From a virus (taxonomy: Duplodnaviria > Caudoviricetes), in the IMG/VR virus record IMGVR_UViG_3300045284_000200, positions 1-56,854 of that record: 56,854 nt of DNA, one strand, 5' to 3'. Position numbers and translations under genes: made by a program. The notes under the pieces are model-generated. The model ran no database searches, was not told where the DNA came from, and saw nothing but the letters and a program-made list of their open reading frames with translations. This document shows, one piece after another, positions 25,599 through 40,240 of the stretch (position 1 is its first letter; each line of letters opens with the position of its first letter).

Positions 25599-25877
25599 CT
25601 ATTTGGCTCCGTGGTTGAGGTTGGTTGGCTGTGGCGTTGGTGGTGTTTTTGGCATCTCGGCTACGTTTAGAAGACGGTTTATGAAATCAATGGCACCTTC
25701 AATACGATGGCAATTGGCGGCGGCTATTTCTGGATCAGATACAGAAGTAAACGACGTTACATAATCGACCAGTGCAGCATGGAGAGCTTCCCGAAACGGC
25801 GTCGAAAGGACCAGATCGCGATGGGCACCAGCGAACTGCTTCTTTTCCTGAAAATCCTTCTTGGGTGTGAGGTTCAT
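25599..25877 (-). CDS. Small head-assembly protein
   Basis: Typical small helical gene between portal and scaffold; ATGA overlap with portal. Confidence 0.55.
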   Translation of the reverse strand: MNLTPKKDFQEKKQFAGAHRDLVLSTPFREALHAALVDYVTSFTSVSDPEIAAANCHRIEGAIDFINRLLNVAEMPKTPPTPQPTNLNHGAK

Positions 25878-28207
25878 TCAGTCGTGGTTTCCGATTCGTG
25901 TTTGGCCTTTGCGCGTCCACGACGAATCTCCGCAGCCGTCTTTACGTCTTGGGCTTGGATTTCAGCCTGAGTGAACTGCGCTTCCTGAGCCATCTCAAGC
26001 TGATGCTGTTCCTGCTTTCGTTTCTCTTCCATTTCCCACTGAACTTGGCGCTGTGACGTCCTCTGGGCGTGAGATTCGGTGGCGTTCTTGGCCTTCACGG
26101 CCGCGTTCATTTCGATGCCCTTGATCTTCGCGACATCCTCCGGGGTGGGACCACCGTTCCCGTTTTGCTGTGCCGCCGCCTTCATCTGCTGCTGCAACCT
26201 TTGGGCGAACGCCTTCACCAGATTCATGATCTGGCCAAGTGCATCGGAATACTTCCGAACCCGCTCCTGATTGCCCTTGTCCTGCGAGATGATCTGGATC
26301 TGTTCCCCGATGGTCTGGCCAACGGTCTGCAACCCGACCAATTGTTCCGGTTTGGCCATGCCGCCAGTCTTCTGAATGCGCCCGACAATCATCGCCATCT
26401 CGGCCAGCAACACCTCGGTCACTTCCACCCGGTTGTCGGTCACTCCGAACTTCACCGGCAGGCCAAGCATCAGCGACCCCATTGCCACCATCGCCTTTTG
26501 CTTCGAGTCAGTGAGCTTGTCTGGTTCCTCTGGGACAAGACTCTTCGTAAGCCCAGGATCGTCGGTAGCCGACAGGGTGCTGATGCGGAGAATCTCACGC
26601 TGACTCTGTGGGTCGTAGAGCGGACGCCATTCCATGAGTTGTTGGGCGATGGCCATCTCCATCGTCTTGTTGCCGCTGCCCATCACTCGTTCCGGCTCCA
26701 GTTCCCATGCCTCTGGCACCAGCAACTTCTCTGGCACCCCAGCCTTCAGACAGTTGATACGAAACGTCCGTACATCCACATCTCTGGAATTCTTAATGCA
26801 GAACCTTCGGAATATCTCTTCGTACTCGAAGGTCTGGTACTGATACGCCTGAAGAAGAGCCGACGAGATGAGCGCCGTGGTCGCGTTAAGTTCGGCCCGA
26901 ACTTGGAACGCGGTCTTTTCGACATCTGGATTGGTCTTCCCTTGGCTCTGAACATAGGAGGATGAATTCTGGTTGATGATTAGCTGATTTTGATTCAGTC
27001 CAAGCTCGGCGAGTTGAGCATTATACTGCATCCGCTCTGCTGCCGGAAGGAACTGTACTGTCTCGTCGATGATACCTCTGCTGATAAGATTGATCTTCAG
27101 CGCACGTTCCGCGTCGTCCATCGACTTCACCCGCATGAACATCATCAAACTCTCAAACACAGCCTCACTGAACTTACAGCGAAGACGATTTTGCAGGTGA
27201 CACACTGCGTAGAGTAGGAATCCCAAGGAACGAACAGAGTGGTAACGAAACGGAGCGACAGCGGACAAGTCAGCGAACTGGAAATTGATAATCTCCGACA
27301 TCTTAGACCCGTACTTTCGAGTGCCGGGGTCGTAGAGAAATCCATCAGTGACGCCAGTCGTTTTCTTCGTGGGCATCACTCCACCGACTCCAGGCTGTCC
27401 ATAGGCATCGACGATGATTCGACGGTTCCAGCCTGATACCTTCTTATCATCGTTGAACCAGTAGAAGTCATAAGTGTCGATTGTTGGAACGGCATCGGAG
27501 GCGAACAATCCGCTATCGTCCTTCATCCGGCTTTCCATCTTCTCAGGGGACCATACCTGTGGCCATGTCGTTCCTGATAATGCTGCGCTTTCCGTGTCGC
27601 ACCACTTCAAGAGCGATTCCACCACGGGCATGTTCCAAGCAGGATCAACCTTCGGGCCGTGTGTAAGTCGATGAAGCTCGTAGGCAGTGTAAGATCGAAA
27701 GATGGCGAAGAACGGCAGGTTCTTCATGGTCAACAAGGTGTTCGCCGGGATCATCACGTCCTCAATCCCAATCGCATCCGGGCACCACATCTGCGACGTT
27801 TCCCACGCTGAAGGACCAATCCCGTGCAAACAGAGCATCGCGAACTTCGAGCGCAACGTCTCGAAATAGAGCGGCGACTGCTTCATGATCTTGTTGATTT
27901 CTCGGCTGACAATGCTGCCGTACTTCTGCCGCTTGTGAACCGGCCCCATGTTAGTCCGGGCAGTGAAGAACGCGCCGGGTTTCTGAAACGCATTACTGAA
28001 TTGCGAACGAGCGTCGTGAGCCAGCTTGGTTCCTTCGAGCGAGTTTACGTTGATCGCGATGTTGTTCTCCGTCTCTTCTTGGTCACTGTAGGGAGGACTC
28101 CCGTTGAACAACGAATCGATCCGTGCGCGATTTAGTGAGCGAGGATAATCTGCCAAGCGCAATTGGTAGCAGAGACTTTCTATTACGGGGGCTGTCGAAA
28201 AATTCAT
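25874..28207 (-). CDS. Portal protein
   Basis: 777 aa; EKTAFQV motif; Q-rich C-terminal coiled coil (P22-like barrel); upstream of scaffold and capsid. Confidence 0.8.
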   Translation of the reverse strand: MNFSTAPVIESLCYQLRLADYPRSLNRARIDSLFNGSPPYSDQEETENNIAINVNSLEGTKLAHDARSQFSNAFQKPGAFFTARTNMGPVHKRQKYGSIVSREINKIMKQSPLYFETLRSKFAMLCLHGIGPSAWETSQMWCPDAIGIEDVMIPANTLLTMKNLPFFAIFRSYTAYELHRLTHGPKVDPAWNMPVVESLLKWCDTESAALSGTTWPQVWSPEKMESRMKDDSGLFASDAVPTIDTYDFYWFNDDKKVSGWNRRIIVDAYGQPGVGGVMPTKKTTGVTDGFLYDPGTRKYGSKMSEIINFQFADLSAVAPFRYHSVRSLGFLLYAVCHLQNRLRCKFSEAVFESLMMFMRVKSMDDAERALKINLISRGIIDETVQFLPAAERMQYNAQLAELGLNQNQLIINQNSSSYVQSQGKTNPDVEKTAFQVRAELNATTALISSALLQAYQYQTFEYEEIFRRFCIKNSRDVDVRTFRINCLKAGVPEKLLVPEAWELEPERVMGSGNKTMEMAIAQQLMEWRPLYDPQSQREILRISTLSATDDPGLTKSLVPEEPDKLTDSKQKAMVAMGSLMLGLPVKFGVTDNRVEVTEVLLAEMAMIVGRIQKTGGMAKPEQLVGLQTVGQTIGEQIQIISQDKGNQERVRKYSDALGQIMNLVKAFAQRLQQQMKAAAQQNGNGGPTPEDVAKIKGIEMNAAVKAKNATESHAQRTSQRQVQWEMEEKRKQEQHQLEMAQEAQFTQAEIQAQDVKTAAEIRRGRAKAKHESETTTE

Positions 28208-28220
28208 TCCACTTCGGAGG

Positions 28221-29006
28221 CTATGCCTGTGTTTGGGCTACGTCAACGCTGCTCGGAATGTCGTCATCGCCGTCCCATGCGTCTTTTCCACCAAAACATG
28301 AGCACTGCTGCTTGCGGTCTAGCGCTGCCATGAAATCGTCTTGGAGCGCACGATTCTCGATTGCTTCTGCACTGATACTCAGTATGGAGTGGCCTTTCCG
28401 TTTTTCTATGGCCTTCCATTCCGCCCATTGCGCTGGGTAATGGGCCATGACCTTTTCAGCTTGTGCGATTCTTTGATTCGGGCAGAAGAAGCAGTCGAAT
28501 CGCCCCATCTTCCGATACATTTCTATCAAGATTTTGAATCCAGCCTTCTCGCAAACCTTTACGCTCTCTGCCCTATCCACGTTGAGTGATTGCAGCGGAA
28601 AGATGTATTTTCGGTCTGGCTTGTCGTTGCGCTCGCAGAAATCATGGCCTCGCTGTTCCTCATCAGCGTTGTATCCAAGGGCGATACGTTGAGGCTTGGG
28701 TTGGCTGTTTGCGTAATCACGCAGAGCCTTTCGTTTCATACGGCGCGAGCAGTCGGTGTATCCTTGGCGGAGCATTCCACCTCTCTCGAAAAGGAACTCG
28801 TCGAACGTCATGCTTGGCTGGAGTCTAATTACAGTCAATCCGCAGATGGTTTCGATTTGCGAGATTGAGTCATACATTTCCGGGAATTGCTTCCCAGTAT
28901 CAGCCCAGATGACGTGCGCCGATGTGCTACGGATTTCTTCACGACAAAGGTAGATCATCGCTGCGCTCTCCATTCCACCTGAAAAGCTGTAAATGTCGGT
29001 TGTCAT
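28221..29006 (-). CDS. PAPS reductase / adenine nucleotide alpha-hydrolase family protein
   Basis: PP-loop SFSGGMES, ADTG..FPE, CSRRMK, GYNADE..R, FPL, RFDCFFCP. Confidence 0.85.
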   Translation of the reverse strand: MTTDIYSFSGGMESAAMIYLCREEIRSTSAHVIWADTGKQFPEMYDSISQIETICGLTVIRLQPSMTFDEFLFERGGMLRQGYTDCSRRMKRKALRDYANSQPKPQRIALGYNADEEQRGHDFCERNDKPDRKYIFPLQSLNVDRAESVKVCEKAGFKILIEMYRKMGRFDCFFCPNQRIAQAEKVMAHYPAQWAEWKAIEKRKGHSILSISAEAIENRALQDDFMAALDRKQQCSCFGGKDAWDGDDDIPSSVDVAQTQA

Positions 29007-29842
29007 AACGCTGGCGGGAAGCCGATCTGCTGGTAGAAGTTCACCCCTGTAACATCAATGTGGTGCGGCATCTTTCGGCCTTCGTGCTTAGGATGGAAGA
29101 TTGGCCCCAACGTCGTGATGTCCACAAACCGGCGACGATAGGTGTGCCAAAGGAAGTTCAGCATCCATTGATCCCAGCGTTGGTGGCCTATACGAAACTG
29201 CTGTGGGATCGCCTTGTAAACCTGCTTCCACACATCGGGTTTCGCGCAGAAGAAGTCGCAGCCGTAGTCAACCACCCGCGCCCGGAAGTAGTCCTCGGTC
29301 TTCGGGTCGAACTCCAACCGTTGACTCGTCATCGCCACCGCTCCCTTGGCCCATGCTTTGTTGACCATCACCTTGAGGTCTGGTGCCACAACGATGTCGG
29401 CGTTGAGCAAGCAGACTGGAACGAAATGAGCCGAAGCAACGAGTGCCATTGATGCGATGTTAGGGAAATCTAGGCTCGGGATGAAATCAGTGGTTGGAGA
29501 TGCAAGTCGTTCATCGCGCTTTCCGAATAGAAGAATACGGTCGAACACCAAGTCCCATGAGCGTTTGGCGCGTAACTGATTCTCGGCAACCTCGGCGGAA
29601 TCGTCGAGAGCGCGGAATGATGAGACAGCGGTCAGCCCTGAGATGTACGGCTCGAACATGGCGGTTGTTGTCCCAGGAAATCCGACAGGATGAGGCTTGG
29701 TCTGTTCCAACTCGTCGTTGAGGTAGACTTCTCGAATGTGCCTTTGGAGATGTAAGGTAAGATTACCATTTACTCCGCCAATCATCTCGCCACACAAAAA
29801 GCAGCGATCCTCGAAGGTAAACCATGAATTTACGGTTCTCAC
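29003..29842 (-). CDS. Glycosyltransferase-like protein with N-terminal C2H2-like finger
   Basis: CFLC...HLQRH; LLNADIVV, GCDFF, FRIG..RWD; GTG start overlapping the upstream stop. Confidence 0.55.
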   Translation of the reverse strand: MRTVNSWFTFEDRCFLCGEMIGGVNGNLTLHLQRHIREVYLNDELEQTKPHPVGFPGTTTAMFEPYISGLTAVSSFRALDDSAEVAENQLRAKRSWDLVFDRILLFGKRDERLASPTTDFIPSLDFPNIASMALVASAHFVPVCLLNADIVVAPDLKVMVNKAWAKGAVAMTSQRLEFDPKTEDYFRARVVDYGCDFFCAKPDVWKQVYKAIPQQFRIGHQRWDQWMLNFLWHTYRRRFVDITTLGPIFHPKHEGRKMPHHIDVTGVNFYQQIGFPPAL

Positions 29843-30036
29843 GTTGATTCCTCCGACATGCGACGTTCCTCTTCTGGTGTAGGCACCCACTGCTTTACGA
29901 CGACAGCTTTGGTCAATTCCGGCGCGATGAACTCCACAAGGCAACGACGGGAACAGAACGCATGACGCTCATCGTTACGGGTTACGTGATACCACGGCAG
30001 TTCATCACTTGGTTTTCCGCATTTGTCGCAGTTCAT
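29839..30036 (-). CDS. Small zinc-binding (TRASH-like) protein
   Basis: CDKC...FCSRRCL. Confidence 0.6.
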   Translation of the reverse strand: MNCDKCGKPSDELPWYHVTRNDERHAFCSRRCLVEFIAPELTKAVVVKQWVPTPEEERRMSEEST

Positions 30037-30230
30037 ACGATTAGTGGTCCTTCCTCGTGTTGTCTGCACATACGAATGATGAAATCACCGATTACCATAT
30101 CAGCATCTCCGAATTTCGCCTTGAAGGCACACTTCTCGTCTTTCGTCATGGTTTTGAGTCCTCCGAATTCACTCATCTCGATTGCTACGTCGATGTGAGA
30201 ACGAAGGCGTTTAAGATCATCGACTGTCAT
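30033..30230 (-). CDS. Hypothetical protein
   Basis: ATGA coupling on both sides. Confidence 0.5.
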   Translation of the reverse strand: MTVDDLKRLRSHIDVAIEMSEFGGLKTMTKDEKCAFKAKFGDADMVIGDFIIRMCRQHEEGPLIV

Positions 30231-30973
30231 AGTGTCACCACGTTGAACGCTTTCTTCTTCGCTTCCTCGGCCCACGTCGGAGAGTGCTCCTTGTCGGCAC
30301 CATCGTAACCCGGTGAGCAACTCCAGGCCGCGCCCTTGTCACCAGAGATTAGGCCGCATCGGCCGTAGTTCTTCGCATTCTTGGATCGCGTGTAGTCGGC
30401 TCCAAAGTAACGGGCGTGCAGCAGCTTCATCCCTGTCTCGCGTCCGACGATTGGATTGCAGTTCTCAAGATCATGCTTCCCTCGAATCCAGTTGATCCTG
30501 ATGTCTGGCTGGAAAACCACGGGCTTAGAATAAACCGGCGCCGCAACTCCCATCGGATTCAGTTCGTAAATCTGGCTTTTACCGTCGTCCTTCGGGAACC
30601 CGTCTCCCAGCAAGTTGTAACCGGACGGCTTGATCACCTGTATCCCGACCGACTTCGCCAGACTCAGGGTGCCCAGCATGTCCGGCGAATAGATGAACTC
30701 GTCACTGTCAGGGATCATCACCCAATCGAACTTTCCACGAGCCTTCGGATACCACTCCTGCCAGTGCGCAAGGAACAGGTCTTCGTTGATCCCGCTCTCG
30801 TGTGGCCACTCGCGTACGAGCACCTTTGGATGGGCGTTGAGCATCTCGCGAGTGCCGTCGGTACTGTGATCGTCGAAAGCGGAAATCTCATCGGCGAACG
30901 TCTCGTAGTGGCGTAAAAAATACGGAAGGACATCGCGGCAATTGTAGGTCAGGACGAAAATTAGGATCTTCAT
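30227..30973 (-). CDS. Glycosyltransferase family 2-like
   Basis: LPYFLRHY...DDHSTDGT...DWVMIPDSDEFI...LLHARY. Confidence 0.88.
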   Translation of the reverse strand: MKILIFVLTYNCRDVLPYFLRHYETFADEISAFDDHSTDGTREMLNAHPKVLVREWPHESGINEDLFLAHWQEWYPKARGKFDWVMIPDSDEFIYSPDMLGTLSLAKSVGIQVIKPSGYNLLGDGFPKDDGKSQIYELNPMGVAAPVYSKPVVFQPDIRINWIRGKHDLENCNPIVGRETGMKLLHARYFGADYTRSKNAKNYGRCGLISGDKGAAWSCSPGYDGADKEHSPTWAEEAKKKAFNVVTL

Positions 30974-31653
30974 GGTGCGATGTGTCGGATGACTTCCAGT
31001 AATGGGGAAGCTCCGTTCGCGTGAAATAGGCACGGATACTCGCTTGTGTCCTTCGCTTTCGGTCTTGGCTCACTGAAGTCCAAAAGCTTGTCCGATCCCA
31101 TATTCATGCAGAAACACAGCGAGCAGGTGCGATCCAGTTCGATGGGGTGTTTCCCCGATAGGAACATGTCCACGACGATCTGTTGATCGTCCTTCTCCCG
31201 CTTCGAGGCGATGGCCGCAAGTTCCTCCGTGAACGGAAGAGCCGCTTCAGTCGTCGCGATCCACATCCCGGCGTTGAGATATTTGCAACGGTGAATCGTC
31301 GGCGGGTAGAGCGCCGCCTGTTCCTGCTTTGGCCAGCAGTAGCACTCGGAGGCAAACACGATGGGCGAGTTGAGCTTCTCGAACTTCGCCATGATTTCGC
31401 CCATGCCGGCCGCGAACACCACGTCGTAGGAATCGGTGAAAACGAAGTGCGTGTATTTGTCGGCGTTCTCGCGGACGAACCGCGCCTGCCCTTCGCTCTT
31501 GCGATACCACGGAATCGTCGTCCAGTCGGCGCCGGGCCAGTCCTCCGAGTCGAAGTTCTGCGGGTCGAGTCCCTGACGCTTCGCGGTGTCGAGGAAGGCG
31601 CCCAGATACTTCTTCGGTGTCGGTCCCCATGTGCTTACGAGTACTGGTTTCAT
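30970..31653 (-). CDS. PLOD/LH3-type glycosyltransferase domain protein
   Basis: FTDSYDV, IVFASE..CWP, YLNAG, DDQ, IELD, LFHANG match the glycosyltransferase domain of procollagen lysyl hydroxylases. Confidence 0.85.
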   Translation of the reverse strand: MKPVLVSTWGPTPKKYLGAFLDTAKRQGLDPQNFDSEDWPGADWTTIPWYRKSEGQARFVRENADKYTHFVFTDSYDVVFAAGMGEIMAKFEKLNSPIVFASECYCWPKQEQAALYPPTIHRCKYLNAGMWIATTEAALPFTEELAAIASKREKDDQQIVVDMFLSGKHPIELDRTCSLCFCMNMGSDKLLDFSEPRPKAKDTSEYPCLFHANGASPLLEVIRHIAP

Positions 31654-31656
31654 AAT

Positions 31657-31842
31657 TCAACCGCCGTGAATTGTTACAATCGCTTCGTTGATAGCAGTCT
31701 GGATGTGGATGGCCAATTGAGCCGTTCGATCTGGCCAGTCGCCTACTGGCTTACGCATCAATTCTTCGTGCTCCTGAACTTCGTGGAGCCACTCTAAAGC
31801 AGCCTTCTTGGCGATGTCACCGATGCCGATGCTTGTGCTCAT
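31657..31842 (-). CDS. Hypothetical protein
   Basis: GGAGG Shine-Dalgarno upstream; ATGA coupling. Confidence 0.5.
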   Translation of the reverse strand: MSTSIGIGDIAKKAALEWLHEVQEHEELMRKPVGDWPDRTAQLAIHIQTAINEAIVTIHGG

Positions 31843-32576
31843 ATCACCTCCGGCCATTCCTTACCAATTGCCTCATCGAACCATGCGACGCTGTGATGCC
31901 CGGTGTACTCAGGGCTCGTGTTGGTTCCAAGATTCAACGCCCTACACCTTTCCGGCACTCGTGCCCAGTTGCGGGCATGTCGCCATCTCACGTAATCCGC
32001 ACCGAGAGCGCGGTAGTGGAGCAGTTTGATCTCGGCGGTGGGTGTACTTCGAGGGTTGAACTGAGCGTAGTCCGGCCCGTGCCGACCAACCGTCCACCAC
32101 ATGTGCTTCCTAAATACGGCCGGCTTGCTCCAGATGCCGTCAGGGAATCCCGTGCGAACCTCATCGTAAATCTGGCCCTCAGTCGTCGGGAACGACTTCG
32201 ATACCATCGTGTAGCCTTGGATCTGTGGCACTTCAACGTCATCGGCGAGATACCGCCGCAACACGTCCTTGATGGCAGGATGGTAAAGGAACTCATCGGC
32301 ATCGACGAATACGATCCAATCCGCTTTGCCGCGGGCTTCCTTCCACGCTTCATTGGCGAACTCCAGAAACTTGTCATCCTGGATGCCGCTCTCGTGTGGC
32401 CACTCGCGCAACTCCGCAGTGTGACAAGACCGGATGATGTCCCGTGTTCCGTCAACGCTCATATCGTCGTAGAACACGAACTTTGTAACCCACGGTGCGT
32501 AGTGCCTGAGAAAATAAGGCATCAGCCGAGACTCATCACGGCAGATGCAAAATAGCCAGATGGAGAGTTCCTTCAC
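31839..32576 (-). CDS. Glycosyltransferase family 2-like (paralog of 30227..30973)
   Basis: MPYFLRHY...DDMSVDGT...DWIVFVDADEFL...KLLHYR. Confidence 0.88.
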   Translation of the reverse strand: MKELSIWLFCICRDESRLMPYFLRHYAPWVTKFVFYDDMSVDGTRDIIRSCHTAELREWPHESGIQDDKFLEFANEAWKEARGKADWIVFVDADEFLYHPAIKDVLRRYLADDVEVPQIQGYTMVSKSFPTTEGQIYDEVRTGFPDGIWSKPAVFRKHMWWTVGRHGPDYAQFNPRSTPTAEIKLLHYRALGADYVRWRHARNWARVPERCRALNLGTNTSPEYTGHHSVAWFDEAIGKEWPEVI

Positions 32577-33103
32577 GCGATTTCTCTCTGCGCTGAAATG
32601 GGGTTATCGGTAGTTGGGAAGTTCAATCTGGCGAATCGTCCAAACAGTTTCACCGCTTCAGCATCGTATGCACGGGCCGCATCTTCTCGCTTCCCGAACG
32701 AACCCAAGTACCGCTGCTTTCCAGACAGATAGATCGCTGCGGACCACCTGCCTTTTGTTTTTATGGTGGGATAGACACCCTTGAACCCAGACTTGTTATT
32801 GGAGCCTGCGGGCTTGTTCCTTGTGTTCTCCAGCGGAGTACATGGACGGAGGTTTTGGTTCGTGTTGTTAAGGCCGTTGCCGTCTCTGTGATCTACCATC
32901 TGCTGTGTATCCAGAATGAACTGAGCCATCTGCTGAATTACCCTCTTCCCGTTCACTCTCACCACTCGCAATGTCCGTTGGGCGTAGAAGCCTCCATTCG
33001 ATCTTTTTGTAGCGTGCCATTTGTGCTGTGTGACGCGATCAAAGTCGCACTCATCGACGATGGCGAATTGTCCCTGTGTCAATGGCACCAGCTTCGTGTT
33101 CAT
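32573..33103 (-). CDS. HNH-AP2 homing endonuclease
   Basis: VDHRDGNGLNN...NLR..T..EN; SGFKGV...WSAAI...YLGSF...AARAYD.EA..LFG.FA.LNF. Confidence 0.92.
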   Translation of the reverse strand: MNTKLVPLTQGQFAIVDECDFDRVTQHKWHATKRSNGGFYAQRTLRVVRVNGKRVIQQMAQFILDTQQMVDHRDGNGLNNTNQNLRPCTPLENTRNKPAGSNNKSGFKGVYPTIKTKGRWSAAIYLSGKQRYLGSFGKREDAARAYDAEAVKLFGRFARLNFPTTDNPISAQREIA

Positions 33104-33888
33104 GCTAACGCTTCCTGAACCCCAGCCTCTTTTTCCCATTCTTCCTTATTCTTGTTCTGATGATGCGGAACGTCTGGGCCTCGGCCACCGGAACAGATCT
33201 TGCACGACTCTAACGGATGTCTTCGGTTCAGGAATTCCTGCAATTTCTCATCGGTCATTCCGGGAATAGGTATTCCATCTACGTGTGGGTCGATGTCCTT
33301 CCAGCGTTCAGCACGTTTCATGTATTGCTTAGGCCAGAAGGCGGAAAGCGGACACAGATAAAAATAGCCGGAATGAATCGTTAAACAGCGATTCCACCCG
33401 CAACCATGATACGTGCTTCCGTCTGGCACGGACGCAAACACTGGCTTGAAGCTGTTGATTTCCTGCGGGCGCACGAAAAATCCCCACTCATCAGCCTTCC
33501 TCTGAATCCAAGGAACAATGTCAGGATCTAGTCCGGGATAACAACTCATGCGAAGTTCACAATGCCCATCTCGAAGCAACGCCCACAGATCGTCGCCCAT
33601 CCGCTTCAAAAGTTTTCCGTTTGTCAGAAGACCAGATTGCTTCGCGATTCCGCTTTCAATGCAAAGCCGAAGAAGTTCAACAACGTCTGGGTGAATCAAA
33701 GGATCTCCACCTTGAACCAGGAGAAGTTTCGTTCTGAGATGATTTTTCATCACCTGCAAATCCTCTTTAAGAACTTCCACCGGCATGTAGTAAACATCAG
33801 CAAAGGCGGAGCCGTGATTGCATTGGGCGCACCTTAAATTGCAGTGTCGAGTCGCGTTGATTTCACAGCCGTAGTCCGTGTTCACCAT
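33100..33888 (-). CDS. Radical SAM protein
   Basis: CNLRCAQC [4Fe-4S] motif, GGDPL, LTNG, extra C-terminal Cys (C...C...CKIC). Confidence 0.9.
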   Translation of the reverse strand: MVNTDYGCEINATRHCNLRCAQCNHGSAFADVYYMPVEVLKEDLQVMKNHLRTKLLLVQGGDPLIHPDVVELLRLCIESGIAKQSGLLTNGKLLKRMGDDLWALLRDGHCELRMSCYPGLDPDIVPWIQRKADEWGFFVRPQEINSFKPVFASVPDGSTYHGCGWNRCLTIHSGYFYLCPLSAFWPKQYMKRAERWKDIDPHVDGIPIPGMTDEKLQEFLNRRHPLESCKICSGGRGPDVPHHQNKNKEEWEKEAGVQEALA

Positions 33889-33910
33889 AGATGCCTCCAA
33901 GTTTTGTTGT

Positions 33911-34528
33911 TCACACCTTCAGGATACCAATCCCACCATGCGGAATCACCCCTTTGTATTTTGAGTGTTCTTCAGTAGCGATAATCTCCCTCTTATCGCC
34001 TTTGAGTTCATTCCAGAATCTCGTCACCTGCAACTCCGGTGGCTGGACGCCATGCGGTCCGATGTTCGCAAGCGGGTTGATGTCGTGGAACACGATCCAG
34101 CCGCCGGGCCGGACGTGCGGCGCCCAAAGCTCGAACTCCTTGGCGATGGTTTCGTAGTAATGCCCGTCGTCGATGAACAGCAGATCGATTGGGCAACCGA
34201 AGGAGTCCTCCATTACCCGTTTTACGCACGCTTCCGTAGTGGCGTCGTCCAGAATAAGTTGAAGATTGTGGCCGTAAGGACGGCTGACGTATGTGTTGTG
34301 ATCCTCGATGTCGATGGAGACGGTCTTCTTAGAGGTAACGAGACTCAGCAGGGCTCCGGTAAATCCTCGGAACGTGCCAAGCTCTACGGTGCATTCTGGC
34401 TTCAATTCGTCGAGCACCAGCGCGAGGAACGTCCGCATCTCCCATTCGTGTTGCTGGATGTTGATGAGGTTGTGATCGGCGAAGATGGCGGTCAACGCGC
34501 TCTCAACGTAGGTTGGTAGTGGGTTCAT
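33911..34528 (-). CDS. Class I SAM methyltransferase (Methyltransf_24 / sugar O-methyltransferase-like)
   Basis: VELGTFRG, IDLLFIDDGHYY, GGWIVFHDI. Confidence 0.88.
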   Translation of the reverse strand: MNPLPTYVESALTAIFADHNLINIQQHEWEMRTFLALVLDELKPECTVELGTFRGFTGALLSLVTSKKTVSIDIEDHNTYVSRPYGHNLQLILDDATTEACVKRVMEDSFGCPIDLLFIDDGHYYETIAKEFELWAPHVRPGGWIVFHDINPLANIGPHGVQPPELQVTRFWNELKGDKREIIATEEHSKYKGVIPHGGIGILKV

Positions 34529-34749
34529 GTAACTTGTGGCTGATCATGGTACGCAGTTGTTAGCGGAATCAGCTTAATCAGTAGATTATTTGGAATAATT
34601 GGACATCCGAATCGATCAACCTCAGTACACCAACACAGACCTTCAAAACAAAGTTCACCACGAATCTTGTCAGGAAACGGCTCCCACCGAACGCCATGAA
34701 AGCACATCGCCTGAAGCAGAATCGAATGGCTATTGTGTTTTCGTTTCAT
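34525..34749 (-). CDS. Hypothetical protein
   Basis: Coupled small ORF. Confidence 0.45.
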   Translation of the reverse strand: MKRKHNSHSILLQAMCFHGVRWEPFPDKIRGELCFEGLCWCTEVDRFGCPIIPNNLLIKLIPLTTAYHDQPQVT

Positions 34750-34931
34750 ATCAGGAACTTCTTTCCGCAACGTTTACACTCAATCGGAATCATGTGCCAC
34801 GGATGACCATCATGGCCATCTGGATAATCATGGAAATCGATCAGCCCTTTGTTTGCGGACTCTTCGCAAACGATTCTCATATTGAGACGGAATCTAGCCA
34901 GAAACCAACGAATGAACTTAGGTAGTTTCAT
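34746..34931 (-). CDS. Hypothetical protein with C-terminal CxxC
   Basis: Coupled ORF; CKRCGKKF. Confidence 0.5.
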   Translation of the reverse strand: MKLPKFIRWFLARFRLNMRIVCEESANKGLIDFHDYPDGHDGHPWHMIPIECKRCGKKFLI

Positions 34932-35131
34932 GCTTTCTGATAGACCGTCATTTCTTTGCCAGCGCGACCTTCGCGCACCCGCTTGAGTTCACCAGTGCTC
35001 ACCATCCTCGATAACATCCGACGATACTGGACTGAGTTTTCAAAATCGCAGACGCAGAACTCCCTTCCGGTTCCGGCCACGTCGCGGATCGACTTGACCA
35101 TTGCGCCGTAAACTCGGTCGGTCTTTCTCAT
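34928..35131 (-). CDS. Small winged-helix-like protein
   Basis: LSRMVSTGELKRV wing pattern. Confidence 0.4.
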   Translation of the reverse strand: MRKTDRVYGAMVKSIRDVAGTGREFCVCDFENSVQYRRMLSRMVSTGELKRVREGRAGKEMTVYQKA

Positions 35132-35781
35132 GGCTTCACGACGAGCGCCTTCTCGCCTTCGGTGAGAACGGGAAGAAGACCATGCTCCGCGGTGAACTCT
35201 GTCCAGTCGGCTACTACGCCCGGGAACCAGCCCGTAAGGTCATCCACGAGCATCCCGCCGCCGCTTGGCAGCAAGTCCCAGTATGCCTCGTAGTCCCTCC
35301 GAACATCTCCTCTTTCATGCGACGCATCTACATAAATTAGCCCCGGAACAAGACCGAGCCATTTAATCACACGCGCTCCGTTGATGCTGTCGATTGCGAA
35401 CGGAACGATCACGTCCTGACACCCGTTGGCGATGACGTTGGCCATGAAGCGATAGAAAAGGTCCGGCCTGCCGAAGTGCGGCCGTATCTTCTCGCGAGCG
35501 CCGAGGAAATGGTCGTAACCGAAGGCCCAAGTATCCACACAGAGGATCGCGCAATCTCGCTTCTGAGCCTTGATGAGCTTGGCCATGTGGATTGCCGATT
35601 CGCCGCAGAAACTACCGACTTCGATGATGATCGATGGGTTCAGACGACCGATACACTGGCCGAATATCTCGCGCTGTGCTCCACCGTCGTTGTACCAGAC
35701 GCCTTCCCAACCGTGGGGAAATCCGACGTAGGGATTTACGCCTTGGTGGATCTTGTCGAGTAACAGGCTGAATGGAGTCAT
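35128..35781 (-). CDS. Class I SAM methyltransferase (Methyltransf_24-like)
   Basis: IEVGSFCGES, CVDTW, LIYVDASH, GGMLVDD. Confidence 0.88.
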   Translation of the reverse strand: MTPFSLLLDKIHQGVNPYVGFPHGWEGVWYNDGGAQREIFGQCIGRLNPSIIIEVGSFCGESAIHMAKLIKAQKRDCAILCVDTWAFGYDHFLGAREKIRPHFGRPDLFYRFMANVIANGCQDVIVPFAIDSINGARVIKWLGLVPGLIYVDASHERGDVRRDYEAYWDLLPSGGGMLVDDLTGWFPGVVADWTEFTAEHGLLPVLTEGEKALVVKP

Positions 35782-36014
35782 ACCGGTGTGCCGTCCTCTC
35801 GTTCGTAGGTGGCGGCGAAAATGTCAGGCTTGCAGGGATAACGCTCTCCTTTTACGCCAGTGATTATCCAATCTCCATCTGATACGCGAAGTGGTCCTTC
35901 AAGGGTTTTGATGATGGCGTTGCCCTTACTATCGTATTCGACACCTTCAGGGAGCGGCGCAATGGCCGAGAACTGCACAGCTTCGATGACGACGGGTTTC
36001 TTTCGGTATTTCAT
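35778..36014 (-). CDS. Conserved small phage protein (PGDYG-like)
   Basis: KYRKKPVVIEAVQ...TLEG...GDWII.GVKGE.YPCKPDIF..TY. Confidence 0.85.
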   Translation of the reverse strand: MKYRKKPVVIEAVQFSAIAPLPEGVEYDSKGNAIIKTLEGPLRVSDGDWIITGVKGERYPCKPDIFAATYEREDGTPV

Positions 36015-36805
36015 AGCATTTTCAAAAGGCTCTCGGGAGTGCATTCAAACGGCTGGTCTTTGTAGTACGGCTTTTGCGGTTGTTCTGGCGAGGCATGACT
36101 CCAGAACTGAACGACCTTGTGCGGCTTCGGGAACTGACCGAGTGCTTGGTCTGGCCAGTTGTATTCGTCTCGGAAATGGCGCCACGCGACTTCACCCAAC
36201 GTGTTGAACTCGCAGAACGTCTGTGGAAAGGCGTTCTCGCAAGACTTGATGTAGTCTTCACAACTCTTGCCGGTGTGCGCTTCGATGCACTCGCGAGCCT
36301 TTGCGTAAGTCTTGCGGTAATGAACCGCCTGCGGCCGACGCATGAACTCGTGGTCTGACGTTCCACCCAAGGCTTTCTCCACCCCATCCTTCCACATTCC
36401 AAGGTTCGCCTGTTGTTCCGTGACGAGCCAGTGATAGGTGGCATGGAGCAGGACCGGTTTGCCATCGTTGATGTAATCCTCCGGTGTCGTCGGCTCGACG
36501 AACATCACGTCGGAATCCATGTGAAAGATGTAGTCCGCGTCGGTGAACTGGTCGGAGCACATGATGACGTGCTCGTGGCGCAGGAACCCTTTCCCCGGCC
36601 AGTCCTCGTAGCACTGCACCTTGGACCCAATGCCTTCGATCTGGGACAGTTCAGTGAGTAGCGGTGTGATCGCGGACAGATCCTCCTCCGGCACGAGTAC
36701 CTTCACTTGCCGAAATCCGGTGGCAAATTTCTTGCACGAAAGGAGTGCGTAGCGGAGCCACGGGTAATGTTTGGCGCACGAGACGATCAGGATGTCAGTG
36801 GTCAT
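36011..36805 (-). CDS. GT-A fold glycosyltransferase-like (DUF6492-like) protein
   Basis: DADYIFHMDSD DxD motif; FCEFNTLG; QFWSH. Confidence 0.65.
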   Translation of the reverse strand: MTTDILIVSCAKHYPWLRYALLSCKKFATGFRQVKVLVPEEDLSAITPLLTELSQIEGIGSKVQCYEDWPGKGFLRHEHVIMCSDQFTDADYIFHMDSDVMFVEPTTPEDYINDGKPVLLHATYHWLVTEQQANLGMWKDGVEKALGGTSDHEFMRRPQAVHYRKTYAKARECIEAHTGKSCEDYIKSCENAFPQTFCEFNTLGEVAWRHFRDEYNWPDQALGQFPKPHKVVQFWSHASPEQPQKPYYKDQPFECTPESLLKML

Positions 36806-36814
36806 GTTGGCCAA

Positions 36815-37027
36815 TCATCGACGCTTGCCGGATGCTGGAAGGCTGTGTGTGGATGCGATGACTTTTGTTTCGACCGTCAGGACTTCATGCAGCACATAGC
36901 GACCTACGCGCTTCTTTTCTCCAATACTGGCGGTTTCATCGGCGGTCTTGTTCACTTGCAGCCATTCGTCTGGAGTTCCTTTTTCCTCTTGGCTGACGAA
37001 TATTTGGTCTGGGAATATTTTGTTCAT
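36815..37027 (-). CDS. Hypothetical protein
   Basis: Coupled small ORF. Confidence 0.5.
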   Translation of the reverse strand: MNKIFPDQIFVSQEEKGTPDEWLQVNKTADETASIGEKKRVGRYVLHEVLTVETKVIASTHSLPASGKRR

Positions 37028-38442
37028 ATTGTTAGTCGGTCGATTAACGAACCGCTTTTGTCCCGATGGAAGACGACGGCGGTTTTTGGGATTTGGTTGA
37101 TGAGATGGTTGCTACCGGGAGGGAAATTTGGAGCCTCGCCTTCGAGTGCGTTGAGATAGCCGTTCTTGATCCCCCAGTAAGCGACGGCGATGTGACCAAT
37201 GTCCTTCACCTTGCCTTCCATTTCGTCTTTCCACTCTACGTCAAACGCGTTCGCGCAATGAGACATTGTGCGTGGCAAGAGATCGGGTGTATTCGGTGGA
37301 TGAATTGTCGGAGTCCCATTGCAATGCATCCCCTTCCCGACAATCGGCCCGGCGAAAGGCATTCGGCAGTTGTCGTAAACGTTCTGGAGCACGGTGAGCC
37401 ATTGTTTCTTCAGCGGGATCGCATCGGCTTCCAACCACAGCCACGAACGATCAAGCTTCTGCATCACCCTGGCCGCGTGTTGCCATGCGTAGGTCTGCGG
37501 AAAACCTGTTCCCGGTGGGATTCGATACGAGGTCTGCTGCACGTTTCCGAACACCTCTCTGGCCAGATGGAGTGATTCTCTCACAACTTGACCATTGGTG
37601 GTGAGGTCGAAGGAGAGCAGGCAATCGTGCGTCTTGTCCGCGCCGAGCGTCTTCATCCACTTCAGGTTCTTGATGAGTTGCAGCACGTCCATCATGCAGA
37701 ACGGCAGAACCACCACGAAGTTGTCGGAGGTGACAATGTTGAACTTTTTCTTCAGCAACCCCATCAGCGTGCCGTCCTTGTTCCGGTGATAGATGACAGC
37801 TTCCGGAGGGAGTTGATCCAATGTGAAAGCGTTTCGAGGTGTTTCGGCCGTTCGATTCTCGACGAAGGTCGGGGCCAAGTCCTTCTCACCGTAGAAATGG
37901 TGGATGAGCTTGGTGTGGGTGGCCAATGGCACTATAGCTTCCGCACTGGACACGTCCCATGCCTTGGCGGGTTGCGCTTCGATGCAAGGTCCGATCAGGT
38001 CGAATGCGTCAGGCGGATAAACGGCGATGCCAGACATGACCTTCATCACCTGCTCACGGTACATGTAGAGTTGTCCAAAGTAGCGGCTTCCCTTGCGCAT
38101 CTTGTCGACGGCCACCAGCCAGCCTCGCTTCACCGGGATTGCATCGGGCTCCAGCCAAAGCCAATCCACACCCTTCTCCTTGCAGTGCTTGGCGGCTACA
38201 AGCCAGAGCGCATTGGCTCCGGCTGGCCAGCCGGTGACTGGTTCGGCAGTGGTGATGAATGAAGCGCCTCTGAATGCTAGATTGGCCAAAGTGAGTGCGT
38301 CCACGGCTTTACCCCAATCGACCGCAGCATCGACGACGAGAAGGCAGTTGAATTCCTGACAGCCGCCGAGTTGGCCGATGAACTCAAGGAGCGCGAGCGC
38401 CTGATCGGCGTCGTCGGGGCAGAATGGAACGACGACGATCAT
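37024..38442 (-). CDS. Tandem two-domain glycosyltransferase-like protein
   Basis: Two homologous halves, each with VV.PFC..D, WLWLE.DAIP.K..WL and AV..HR.K.G.L. Confidence 0.6.
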   Translation of the reverse strand: MIVVVPFCPDDADQALALLEFIGQLGGCQEFNCLLVVDAAVDWGKAVDALTLANLAFRGASFITTAEPVTGWPAGANALWLVAAKHCKEKGVDWLWLEPDAIPVKRGWLVAVDKMRKGSRYFGQLYMYREQVMKVMSGIAVYPPDAFDLIGPCIEAQPAKAWDVSSAEAIVPLATHTKLIHHFYGEKDLAPTFVENRTAETPRNAFTLDQLPPEAVIYHRNKDGTLMGLLKKKFNIVTSDNFVVVLPFCMMDVLQLIKNLKWMKTLGADKTHDCLLSFDLTTNGQVVRESLHLAREVFGNVQQTSYRIPPGTGFPQTYAWQHAARVMQKLDRSWLWLEADAIPLKKQWLTVLQNVYDNCRMPFAGPIVGKGMHCNGTPTIHPPNTPDLLPRTMSHCANAFDVEWKDEMEGKVKDIGHIAVAYWGIKNGYLNALEGEAPNFPPGSNHLINQIPKTAVVFHRDKSGSLIDRLTI

Positions 38443-39227: not shown

Positions 39228-39551
39228 TCAGCCTTCGAGTTGTAGCGTCGGATGTTCCTTTCGTATTTCCGCCAACCTGTTCTGAGCACGCTGAAGCTCC
39301 GTTTGAAGACCGCGCATCTCGGCGTGTCGGGCTGTGAGTTGGTAAAGCTCCTCGATGCTCGTAAGCAGCCCGCGCTTATGATCCTCGACGAGTCCCTCCG
39401 CACGCGACTGAAGCTCCTTGGTTGCCGTCGCCGCATCTTCTCCTTCATCCAGTGTGGCCGTCATGGACACTTCCGGTCGGAGATTCGAGTATTGTTCGTG
39501 GGGATGGTTGAACGTACGACCGGCAGTGACGGTGATGGTGTTAATTTTCAT
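39228..39551 (-). CDS. Hypothetical coiled-coil protein
   Basis: Start MKINTITV; coupled. Confidence 0.55.
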   Translation of the reverse strand: MKINTITVTAGRTFNHPHEQYSNLRPEVSMTATLDEGEDAATATKELQSRAEGLVEDHKRGLLTSIEELYQLTARHAEMRGLQTELQRAQNRLAEIRKEHPTLQLEG

Positions 39552-40240
39552 GTGTCTTTTAGGATCCAGCAGCGAGGATCGAGTTTGGTTTTGGTGTCTT
39601 CTGATGTGTGGGCGAGGACGTGATCCATCGGCACCCATACCTTGAGCTTGAGCGGGCAGTCACAGACGGAACAGACGGTGAGTTTATCGTCGTGCGGAGT
39701 GCGCAGTTGAAGATCTCCGCGGATCTCCAGTTGCGTGTGAATCTTGTCCGCGATTGGTTTCGTGAAATAGTCGAGGATGCTTCCGCCGTTGTTCTTCGGG
39801 CAGCCCGCACAAATCGACGCCCGGGCGTCCGCGAGCGATTGCTGGACAGCCTTGCCACCACTCCCGAGCCAATCGAGGAGCACGCCAACTCCAGCCGCCA
39901 CGTTTCTAACTGCTCCCACAACACTTGTTTTTTTTTGAGCCGGTGGTGGCATCACATAGGTCGGAGCGGCCGGCGTCGCGTCGTCCTGGATGATGAAGTT
40001 CAACCAGCCGCCAGCGATGCAACGAGCCGTGTTGTACTGATCTACCTCGTGCTCCACACCCTCACGATCCAGACGCCAGCCATGTCTCTCCGCCAGGAAC
40101 GAGTTGGCCTGACGCAGCATCATCACCTGCTCAACGACGTGGTTAAAGGAGCCGACGATGGGTGAAGACTGCCCGGTTTCAGGCTGGAGAAACTGAAACG
40201 AGTAAGGCGGATGTTCGGTGCGTGACTTCAGATGTGCCAT
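39548..40240 (-). CDS. Cys-rich hypothetical protein
   Basis: ICAGCPKN...CSVCDCPL..K...CW. Confidence 0.65.
   Translation of the reverse strand: MAHLKSRTEHPPYSFQFLQPETGQSSPIVGSFNHVVEQVMMLRQANSFLAERHGWRLDREGVEHEVDQYNTARCIAGGWLNFIIQDDATPAAPTYVMPPPAQKKTSVVGAVRNVAAGVGVLLDWLGSGGKAVQQSLADARASICAGCPKNNGGSILDYFTKPIADKIHTQLEIRGDLQLRTPHDDKLTVCSVCDCPLKLKVWVPMDHVLAHTSEDTKTKLDPRCWILKDT

Follow-up and report, generated by a model that had tools for sequence, protein, structure and literature searches.

A fixed, variable slot lies between the gene for the conserved protein p230 and that for a putative portal protein in a large family of about 55-kb DTR phages known from metagenomes only. In the uncultured phage analyzed here, whose complete 57-kb genome makes up the window (the whole stretch analyzed, 56,854 nt), the slot is filled on the minus strand from 38442 to 28221, ahead of putative head genes, by six glycosyltransferase (GT) genes encoding seven domains, two Methyltransf_24 enzymes, one radical SAM enzyme, and one PAPS-reductase-like protein (Table 1). 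It is quite possible, though short of probable, that this block represents, in its local form, a variable glycan-synthesis island making a methylated glycan, virion proteins being the most likely acceptor. All ten enzyme-like ORFs of the original prediction are present on one strand, and by their ORF coordinates the junctions are mainly overlaps of 4 nt or spacings of at most 13 nt, as the described stop/start coupling of most genes implies. The enzyme set of that prediction stood, whereas its zinc-finger fusion and threonine-rich fibres did not; its portal was not confirmed, and it overlooked an HNH gene that sits inside the block. The same long minus-strand operon carries the block, the putative head genes, and the fibre genes, which include a collagen-like tail fibre (9514-10653) and a He_PIG protein; the island is at the very start of the operon, preceded by a few small ORFs.

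Table 1. Features of the variable slot and its borders, by descending coordinate. Pfam matches were scored against curated cut-offs, and bits are given beside the cut-off.
Feature	Coordinates	Strand	Remarks
p230, conserved Cys-rich protein	39548..40240	-	upstream border of variable slot across phage family
Tandem double GT-A glycosyltransferase, 472 aa	37024..38442	-	first gene of island
DUF6492-like protein, 267 aa, start probably residue 4	36011..36814	-	invariant H98-x-D100-x-D102
Methyltransf_24 class I SAM methyltransferase, 217 aa, CmcI / rhamnosyl-O-methyltransferase type	35128..35781	-	Pfam 2.2e-12, 48.2 vs 26.3 bits
Second Methyltransf_24 methyltransferase, 205 aa	33911..34528	-	Pfam 1e-15, 58.9 vs 26.3 bits; RMNT_CmcI 6.9e-9
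Radical SAM enzyme, 266 aa, CxxxCxxC	33100..33900	-	Pfam Radical_SAM 1.3e-11, 45.4 vs 29.5 bits
HNH/AP2 homing endonuclease, 188 aa	32573..33139	-	phrog_99 5.4e-33; weak Pfam HNH_3 and AP2
GT2-type glycosyltransferase b, 245 aa	31839..32576	-	Glyco_tranf_2_4 2.1e-14, 54.2 vs 27.5 bits; Glycos_transf_2 3.1e-6
PLOD-type GT domain protein, 227 aa, without hydroxylase domain	30970..31653	-	GT_PLOD 3.2e-23, 82.6 vs 27 bits
GT2-type glycosyltransferase a, 248 aa from ATG 30973	30227..30973	-	Glyco_tranf_2_4 1.3e-15, 58.1 vs 27.5 bits
Small zinc-ribbon ORF, 76 aa, CxxC...CxxxC	29839..30069	-	separate gene upstream of 218-aa GT
GT-A fold glycosyltransferase, about 218 aa	29003..29659	-	last conserved gene of island
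PAPS-reductase-like PP-loop protein, 261 aa	28221..29006	-	PAPS_reduct 3e-11, 44.1 vs 22.5 bits; phrog_424 4e-28
777-aa protein, putative portal	25874..28207	-	downstream border of slot

GT-A folds or GT families support all six of the GT-like genes that had been predicted. The tandem double domain is supported by an internal duplication, the halves being 28% identical (E 1.4e-22), and by dual GT-A fold matches; each half has an ExD motif (E98/D100 and E338/D340) whose residues are invariant across 36 sequences. The AlphaFold model of this enzyme has a pLDDT of 92.6, its top Foldseek matches in the PDB are LH3, LARGE1, COLGALT1, mimivirus R699, and K4CP (probability 1.00), and its BFVD matches are multi-domain GT-A proteins from giant viruses and uncultured phages. 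The 267-aa protein is a putative GT-A-type transferase: its own Pfam E-value for DUF6492 is only 0.11, and its likeness to that family, noted before, is borne out by two homologues (P0139 and P0234) that exceed the cut-off and by DUF6492 on 28 of its 30 named Atlas matches. Weak matches to GT6 and Stealth_CR2 were also found, and hhalign comparisons with the other GTs of the block were not significant. The two GT2 genes are paralogues, as predicted, with Pfam matches in both and 35% mutual identity (E 1e-48). The GT2a ORF as listed reaches 31033, and the match in the relative L002 begins only at residue 21; with the shorter start, GT2a and the PLOD gene overlap by 4 nt. GT_PLOD is well above its cut-off in the predicted PLOD-type GT, which aligns to phrog_61 only across the GT part of that profile. 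The supposed 313-aa zinc-finger fusion is instead a gene of about 218 aa with an ORF over-extended upstream: homologues are mostly 218-220 aa and span only its last 70%, and the N-terminal C2H2-like stretch is unmatched in L002 and L003. The AlphaFold model of the 218-aa GT (pLDDT 93.7, pTM 0.90) matched AvpGT best and also WrtF, ArnC, and K4CP in Foldseek (TMq up to 0.59). The 76-aa zinc-ribbon ORF is kept in close relatives, at 51-66% identity in L002-L005 and L015 (tblastn).

Both predicted Methyltransf_24 enzymes exceed the Pfam cut-off and have COMT-like O-methyltransferase motifs, but only distant kinship connects them (BLASTP E 0.02); the 217-aa enzyme also matches RMNT_CmcI (1.5e-5) and, under its cut-off, the NCBIfam rhamnosyl O-methyltransferase (1.6e-4). 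The radical SAM protein is likewise confirmed by Pfam. Its invariant cysteines are C20, C24, C27, C167, C172, C183, C233, and C236, and the five beyond the CxxxCxxC motif suggest an auxiliary Fe-S cluster; it matches PDB 7wzv ('4Fe-4S cluster-binding domain-containing protein') over its full length (E 1.9e-24). Full-length bacterial homologues are few, and four such loci share no other cassette gene; in one that was scanned, the neighbours encode an AdoMet decarboxylase, a spermidine-synthase-like protein, and a PP-binding protein, not glycan enzymes.

The HNH gene is a mobile insertion outside the pathway and is not at the corresponding position in L002 or L003. The PP-loop enzyme was correctly assigned to the PAPS-reductase family, and it also matches PDB 21fy ('PptA', 2e-7). 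Its gene was found neither in the nearest relatives, L002 and L003, nor in the slot of L002-L005, and only 4 of 158 related loci gave PAPS-reductase matches, weak ones of 21-25% identity; because it is missing from all close relatives, we regard it as a lineage-specific local insertion. Given this insertion, the mobile element, and the modular gain and loss that makes the other genes separable among relatives, the block is not the single ten-enzyme pathway originally proposed.

At the upstream border, p230 gave tblastn matches in most related loci but no Pfam or PHROG match. The cluster had been placed directly upstream of a portal gene, but the portal identity of the 777-aa protein drew no support from Pfam, PHROG, PDB profiles, or SU10-portal, and the protein has no Walker A motif; the sole lead is from Atlas, where one neighbouring cluster (score 0.96) has SU10_portal on 11% of its members. 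Conservation in related phages, a check suggested earlier, held for nearly the whole set: L002-L005 keep all of it at 53-90% identity, except for the PAPS-reductase and HNH genes. Among 55 GT-anchored loci with the GT and the putative portal in order, 13 have the GT gene stopping 9-276 nt short of the portal, and the other 42 hold 0.8-8.9 kb; these filled loci contain Methyltransf_24 (29 loci), DUF6492 (26), the 218-aa GT (25), GT2 (13), the radical SAM enzyme (12), and the PLOD GT (6). The interval from p230 to the putative portal, measured in 58 portal-anchored loci, ranges from 725 to 8598 nt. A recognized GT, methyltransferase, or radical SAM family occurs in 41 of these slots, in shuffled combinations, and only unknown families in 17. 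Relatives also carry FkbM methyltransferases and an NDP-hexose-type C-methyltransferase (Methyltransf_13/14, 1.2e-31) in the same slot. A variable methylated glycan is a probable product because relatives fill the same slot with different enzyme mixes.

The earlier reading of a glycan-building and tailoring block is thus upheld by the GT-A folds and families, the COMT-like motifs, and the sugar methyltransferases in the slots of relatives. Nucleotide-sugar synthesis and hydroxymethylase genes had been reported lacking, and six-frame searches of the complete genome agreed, finding no NAD-epimerase, NTP-transferase, or thymidylate-synthase-type hydroxymethylase. We infer the sugar chemistry, step order, and acceptor as follows. 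Soluble cytoplasmic GT-A enzymes (the tandem 472-aa GT, the DUF6492-like protein, the two GT2 paralogues, the PLOD-type GT, and the 218-aa GT-A) would assemble an oligosaccharide from host nucleotide sugars, the two COMT-like enzymes would O-methylate the sugars, and the radical SAM enzyme may contribute an additional tailoring step. One or more virion proteins from the same operon would be the most likely acceptor, as gene position and analogy suggest. No acceptor was identified: apart from the collagen-like fibre stretch, the only obvious candidate, strong Ser/Thr tracts are absent from the virion ORFs, and that stretch fails the co-occurrence test described below. Several observations count against this reading: the neighbours are only putative portal and head genes, a candidate large terminase is elsewhere in the genome on the other strand, and a tandem GT homologue is not universal, being detectable in only 22 among the 48 portal-anchored loci that extend at least 9 kb upstream. 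The unrelated surroundings of the bacterial radical SAM genes and the slots with only unknown families also count against it.

It is unlikely, though the likeliest of the rivals, that the enzymes modify a host envelope precursor, receptor, protein, or free oligosaccharide during infection rather than the virion, so as to prevent superinfection, help release, or counteract a defence. The acceptor cannot be read from the presence of GT-A enzymes and O-methyltransferases, rapid modular turnover would also suit an arms race over the host surface, and expression of the island, being at the operon start, could precede that of the virion genes. However, no membrane-spanning protein, flippase, polymerase, or GtrA-like partner was found within the block, and all the enzymes look soluble: the maximum 19-residue Kyte-Doolittle window mean is 1.84, and the two most hydrophobic windows are core beta-strands of confident predicted models. 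Classical lysogenic serotype conversion is unlikely because the genome has no integrase or recombinase: Phage_integrase and Resolvase were each found in 0/1 when the complete genome was searched in six frames, and both passed their cut-offs in at least nine control genomes.

That the GTs and methyltransferases decorate phage bases against restriction, with the radical SAM or PP-loop enzyme making the attachment point, is improbable. Radical SAM and PP-loop enzymes do occur in 7-deazaguanine and phosphorothioate pathways, phrog_2675, matched by both methyltransferases, is labelled 'DNA methyltransferase' in PHROG, and the best fold match of the 218-aa GT, AvpGT, is a nucleoside glycosyltransferase. 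Whole-genome marker searches weaken this alternative: the complete genome, searched in six frames, has no thymidylate-synthase-like hydroxymethylase, TET/JBP, C5 DNA methylase, or TGT/DpdA, with Thymidylat_synt, Tet_JBP, DNA_methylase, and TGT each found in 0/1 (all of them except Tet_JBP passed their cut-offs in at least nine control genomes). Moreover, the methyltransferases match CmcI / rhamnosyl-O-methyltransferase rather than DNA methylase families, the PP-loop gene is absent from all close relatives, the radical SAM match to QueE is weak (TIGR04349, 1.8e-4, far under cut-off), and the island groups with structural genes, not with the early and replication genes of the plus strand.

It is more doubtful still that the PLOD-type and tandem GTs act as collagen glycosyltransferases on the G-X-T stretch of the tail fibre. 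The GT_PLOD domain, the tandem GT-A architecture, and the best structural matches recall LH3/PLOD3, COLGALT1, and mimivirus L230/R699, of which LH3, COLGALT1, and R699 glycosylate collagen, and this phage also encodes a collagen-like protein; mimivirus L230, described as joining a GT to a hydroxylase and as modifying the collagen-like proteins of that virus (PMC4691112), offers an analogy. The threonine-rich fibres of the original prediction nevertheless reduce to this one stretch of ~15 G-X-Y triplets, in which Y is often Thr and Lys does not occur, and no lysyl hydroxylase or other 2OG oxygenase is encoded anywhere in the genome. Co-occurrence also fails: the fibre C-domain is present in three of the four full-cassette relatives searched, all three homologues lack the repeat, and the fourth relative has no fibre altogether, whereas collagen-like stretches occur in distant relatives (G020, G023, and G027) where the proteins of the window, as queries, picked up only the GT472-type GT. 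The likeness to LH3 is largely the shared tandem GT-A layout (TM about 0.3), and, as a further difference from the collagen enzymes, both tandem-GT halves keep a metal-binding-type ExD motif. Least credible is a RiPP-like product, in which the radical SAM enzyme would mature a peptide from one of seven short ORFs (61-88 aa) interleaved with the enzyme genes, and the GTs and methyltransferases would decorate it or a small molecule: the enzyme weakly matches SPASM/twitch peptide maturases and some relatives have a second radical SAM/SPASM gene in the slot, but every maturase match is far under its family cut-off, most of the short ORFs lack conservation even among the closest relatives, and neither a leader-peptide recognition domain nor a protease or exporter is present.

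Returning to the island as a source of virion glycans, the 472-aa enzyme resembles LARGE1, K4CP chondroitin polymerase, and PmHS2 heparosan synthase in having two GT-A domains per chain, each with an acidic motif; these features and the strong fold matches to polymerases leave open that it would make a repeating disaccharide. Identity to those polymerases is about 10%, however, and here the halves are mutual paralogues with a single-domain version in distant relatives of this phage. Chlorovirus PBCV-1 a64r is described as a GT-A domain with a C-terminal O-methyltransferase domain (PMC4691112), and it likewise combines virus-encoded soluble GT-A activity with sugar O-methylation, independent of host secretory machinery. 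PBCV-1, however, is a eukaryotic giant virus with the domains fused in one protein, rather than in separate genes, and with a known acceptor, the major capsid protein Vp54; that account describes no radical SAM partner.

Also among the nearest described counterparts are the mycobacteriophage virion glycosylation cassettes of cluster F Che8 and the cluster O Corndog-like phages (Freeman et al. 2023, cited in PMC11600133), the latter described as three tandem GTs adjoining an O-methyltransferase (PMC11600133). They share with this block phage-encoded tandem GTs with an O-methyltransferase, a cytoplasmic route, and a proposed virion-protein coat, and this block brings no nucleotide-sugar synthesis genes of its own. 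This block is much larger than the cassettes in that description, with six GT genes, two methyltransferases, and a radical SAM enzyme, and throughout an entire uncultured family it sits in a fixed, highly variable slot beside the putative portal. The tandem GT, as sole tblastn query, had no match in 50,697 GenBank phage records, a set that should include these mycobacteriophages. Glycosylation is here predicted from the genes; if virion proteins are indeed the acceptor, the particle would carry a lineage-specific sugar coat.

The virus record is complete at 56,854 bp, has direct terminal repeats, and contains no tRNA genes in the window. No nucleotide match to the region was found by megablast among 50,697 GenBank phage records, and tblastn searches of the same records with the tandem glycosyltransferase (GT) and the putative portal were likewise negative. 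Minus-strand genes occupy the region between ~42,950 and position 3, a collagen-like tail fiber and an Ig-domain protein among them, and the plus-strand right arm carries a metallopeptidase and a PD-(D/E)XK nuclease. The island genes, from 38442 down to 28221 on the minus strand, are closely spaced, with 4-nt overlaps at most junctions; counts from promoter and terminator scans did not exceed those from shuffled sequences.

Coordinates of the island, its borders, and other features discussed in the text (positions are those of the window unless a locus is named)
Feature	Position	Strand	Remarks
ORF of at least 1249 aa	3-3749	-	Ala/Pro-rich stretches; continues beyond the start of the window (terminal-repeat end); no family match
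Tail-fiber-like protein	9514-10653	-	~15 collagen-type G-X-Y triplets (GPQ, GPT, GAT)
Homing endonuclease	12859-13683	-	phrog_314
Candidate large terminase, 612 aa	13670-15508	+	Walker A GPASSGKT, then an acidic motif
450-aa protein	21658-23010	-	Highest conservation among relatives
Homing endonuclease	23250-23846	-	phrog_1872/59
Putative portal, 777 aa	25874-28207	-	Downstream border of the slot
218-aa GT	29003-29659	-	
GT2a	30227-30973	-	
PLOD GT	30970-31653	-	
GT2b	31839-32576	-	
Homing endonuclease HNH/AP2	32573-33139	-	Inside the island; phrog_99
DUF6492-like protein, 267 aa	36011-36814	-	
Tandem GT, 472 aa	37024-38442	-	
p230	39548-40240	-	Upstream border of the slot
Nearest bacterial radical SAM homolog	L083 7977-8762 (Nitrospiraceae MAG contig)		33% identity, full length

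Seven of the island genes exceed curated Pfam cut-offs: two with Glyco_tranf_2_4, one with GT_PLOD, two with Methyltransf_24, the radical SAM gene, and the PAPS-reductase-like gene. The tandem GT has hundreds of metagenomic homologs, mostly near its own length of 472 aa, and its predicted structure (pLDDT 92.6) consists of two GT-A domains with the Rossmann-like alpha/beta/alpha fold. The two halves are paralogs of each other (28% identity, E = 1.4e-22), and each appears in the alignment to carry one invariant acidic motif (E98-x-D100 and E338-x-D340). The best matches to the model were the dual GT-A enzymes LH3, LARGE1, COLGALT1, mimivirus R699, and the chondroitin and heparosan polymerases; it also resembles GT-A proteins with several domains from giant viruses and uncultured phages. 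A GT-A fold is predicted for the 218-aa GT as well (pLDDT 93.7), where N87-A88-D89, D132, and D136 are invariant in the alignment. This gene had been described as a 313-aa fusion to a zinc finger, but homologs are mostly 218-220 aa long and align to the last 70% of that ORF, its C2H2-like N-terminus is not conserved in relatives, and a separate 76-aa zinc-ribbon ORF lies directly upstream of the 218-aa core; the longer ORF had simply been over-extended. GT2a, GT2b, and the PLOD GT are probably also of GT-A type, judging by their Pfam matches above cut-off, which for the GT_PLOD domain of the last reached 82.6 bits (3.2e-23). The 267-aa protein itself scores 12.1 bits against DUF6492 (PF20102; cut-off 22.9), whereas homologs at 71% and 37% identity to it score 24.2 and 24.0 bits, and 28 of its 30 named Atlas matches carry the domain. 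It would thus belong to DUF6492 through its homologs. An H-x-D-x-D motif is invariant in these proteins, hhalign comparisons of the family with other GT families were not significant, and a literature search on DUF6492 found no paper. The originally predicted tally of six GT-type genes with seven domains therefore seems sound from sequences and structural models, the DUF6492-like member being the less certain one.

Both Methyltransf_24 enzymes also match CmcI/rhamnosyl O-methyltransferase in Pfam, and their translations contain an acidic FIDxxH-type motif, which is typical of O-methyltransferases of the COMT/CmcI type. The radical SAM enzyme (Pfam 45.4 bits against a cut-off of 29.5) has a CxxxCxxC motif in which C20, C24, and C27 are invariant, together with five further invariant cysteines. 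It aligns end to end with PDB 7wzv (E = 1.9e-24), an entry without a functional name, and full-text searches turned up no paper mentioning 7WZV, 7WZX, or 7X0B; all the NCBIfam matches listed (25 of 41) fell far under the cut-offs for characterized radical SAM subfamilies. Few full-length homologs were detected in bacterial genomes, and other cassette genes accompanied them in none of the four loci examined. The nearest one is flanked by genes for an AdoMet decarboxylase, a spermidine-synthase-like protein, and a PP-binding protein, a polyamine-type and not a glycan setting, which gave no help in naming the enzyme. The PAPS-reductase-like protein scores well against its families (Pfam 44.1 bits against a cut-off of 22.5; phrog_424, 4e-28), and literature searches on "PptA", the PDB match of this PP-loop protein, gave no relevant result. 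Its gene is missing from the slot in the relatives L002-L005, and matches in related loci were confined to 4 of 158, at only 21-25% identity; as it is not conserved with the glycan cassette, it was rejected as a functional member of it. An HNH/AP2 homing endonuclease gene within the block had been overlooked altogether. Three such endonuclease genes are dispersed in the structural operon of the window and other HNH genes occur in the slot of relatives; mobile endonucleases are thus abundant in this family.

The block is one allele of a variable island found throughout the family at a fixed slot, the interval between p230 and the putative portal. The Cys-rich p230 protein (CxxC...CxxCxC) is encoded upstream of the slot in nearly every family member. 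Retrieval with the tandem GT gave 78 related loci, mostly on contigs of ~55 kb. Conservation of the cluster was checked in related phages: L002-L005 and L015 keep the whole set, minus the PAPS-reductase and HNH genes, at 53-90% identity, and in L002 the space beside the portal is filled by other genes, including a different HNH. The GT and the 777-aa gene were both present in order in 55 loci: 13 of these have 9-276 nt between the end of the GT and the 777-aa gene, and the remaining 42 have 0.8-8.9 kb there. The families occupying those 42 intervals were Methyltransf_24 (29 loci), DUF6492 (26), the 218-aa GT (25), GT2 (13), radical SAM (12), and PLOD GT (6), along with FkbM methyltransferases, a second radical SAM/SPASM gene, and HNH genes.

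Because a sample retrieved with the GT is biased by its query, the analysis was repeated with loci retrieved by the 777-aa protein. A tandem GT homolog was detectable in 22 of the 48 portal-anchored loci with at least 9 kb of upstream sequence; the gene is thus common in the family but not universal, and the idea that it is a core gene invariably found beside the portal was dropped. The interval between p230 and the 777-aa gene was occupied in every one of the 58 loci having both, over lengths of 725-8598 nt, and 41 of the 58 contained at least one recognized GT, methyltransferase, or radical SAM family. Among the slot families of relatives were also an NDP-hexose-type C-methyltransferase (Methyltransf_13/14, 1.2e-31) and a third type of radical SAM protein. 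The place of the tandem GT is taken in 27 of the 58 portal-anchored loci (L139, L161, L201, and others) by a pair of proteins, H1 of ~215 aa and H2 of ~230 aa, the latter with a conserved FYHC...YFHxKG motif. Compared by profile with the tandem GT, H1 matched only weakly (probability 18%) and H2 not at all, and neither matches any Pfam or PDB entry. Given the content of the slot in both samples, the picture of a unique ten-enzyme pathway gives way to an island whose modules are swapped among relatives.

The 777-aa gene had been called a portal gene, and it is kept here as a putative one. The protein has no match in Pfam or PHROG, sequence and profile searches against the PDB were both negative, the SU10 portal family (PF23899) was not detected in its own genome or in 20 related genomes, and hhalign with the SU10 portal returned a probability of 0.4%; against seven negative tests, the sole positive is an Atlas lead. 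A consensus Q/K/A-rich C-terminal tail and the lack of a Walker A motif would nevertheless be compatible with a portal. The 450-aa protein has no Pfam or PHROG match either, and its identity among relatives, 86-97% compared with 68-90% for the 777-aa protein, fits what might be expected of a major capsid protein. From its motifs, the 612-aa ORF is likely the large terminase. It lies on the strand opposite to the neighboring structural genes, far from the putative portal, and adjoins a homing endonuclease gene. The ORF at the left end of the window may encode an internal virion or ejection protein.

The glycan-synthesis island is real, elaborate, and well conserved. In this, the original prediction was mostly right, although four corrections were needed, and its interpretation, a methylated glycan that would be built on the virion or on exported proteins, is plausible. 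The island enzymes have no hydrophobic segments long enough to span a membrane, the block contains no flippase, polymerase, or GtrA-like gene, and the genome itself encodes neither an epimerase/dehydratase nor a nucleotidyltransferase. Together with the FIDxxH motif, these features point to a glycan that would be assembled in the cytoplasm by the island enzymes from nucleotide sugars of the host. The most plausible acceptors are virion proteins, a suggestion that rests on the position within the structural operon, on modular turnover of the kind typical of surface traits, and on precedents for virion glycosylation by virus-encoded enzymes in mycobacteriophages and chloroviruses (PMC11600133; PMC4691112).

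The GTs and methyltransferases might instead modify phage DNA, but this is unlikely because the enzyme families that provide a hydroxymethyl handle were not found in the complete genome: six-frame searches for PF00303 (thymidylate-synthase-like), PF12851 (Tet_JBP), and PF00145 (C5-methylase) were each negative (0/1), and so was the search for TGT (0/1). Between 9 and 14 of the 14 control genomes passed the cut-offs for PF00303, PF00145, and TGT, whereas none passed that for Tet_JBP, making the Tet_JBP negative the weaker one. The earlier statement that neither base-hydroxymethylase nor nucleotide-sugar synthesis genes are present was thus upheld by whole-genome searches. Serotype conversion of a lysogenized host is also unlikely, as neither an integrase nor a serine recombinase was found when the complete genome was searched in six frames. 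Glycosylation of the collagen-like G-X-T fiber is suggested by the co-occurrence in one genome of that fiber, a PLOD-type GT, and an LH3-like tandem GT, but the repeat contains no Lys, lysyl hydroxylase/2OG-Fe(II) oxygenase domains (PF13640 and PF03171) were each 0/1 in the complete genome, and, when fiber homologs sought in 30 related genomes were read, the repeat was missing in 3/3 full-cassette relatives examined; as it does not travel with the cassette, the fiber was rejected as a general target. The three homologs retain the C-terminal domain of the fiber. Strong Ser/Thr tracts are absent from the virion ORFs of the window, and the argument from Thr-rich fibers falls with the repeat.

The closest comparison is with systems of the Che8/Corndog type, which likewise combine phage-encoded GTs and an O-methyltransferase near virion genes (PMC11600133); the window differs in its 472-aa GT, the one GT searched by tblastn, which has no match in GenBank phages. 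With LH3 and L230 the window shares the GT_PLOD domain, but its genome lacks a lysyl hydroxylase and a collagen-like acceptor does not travel with the enzymes. Within virus-encoded glycosylation, the interest of the island lies in its fixed slot, its module swapping, and its uncharacterized radical SAM, DUF6492, and H1/H2 families. We tentatively raise the possibility, though we think it rather doubtful, that the slot between p230 and the portal serves this whole uncultured phage family much as an O-antigen locus serves bacteria, with shuffled modules yielding a lineage-specific virion glycan "serotype" that is methylated and tailored by radical SAM enzymes. The modules would be single and tandem GT-A, DUF6492, GT2, PLOD-GT, COMT-like, FkbM, and NDP-hexose C-methyltransferase genes and at least three radical SAM types, and the alternative H1/H2 chassis would also be included.

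If the island does coat virions, glycan coats would be widespread among environmental phages, each made by a modular set of enzymes encoded at one dedicated site. Their evolution by module swapping would matter for host recognition, for evasion of recognition by hosts or predators, and for phage engineering, and the uncharacterized radical SAM family, DUF6492, and the H1/H2 families would be leads to new enzymology. In the literature found, virus-encoded protein glycosylation in phages has been demonstrated for mycobacteriophages only. Were the likeness to an O-antigen locus to prove true, virion glycosylation would be a family-wide diversifying trait and not a mycobacteriophage curiosity.
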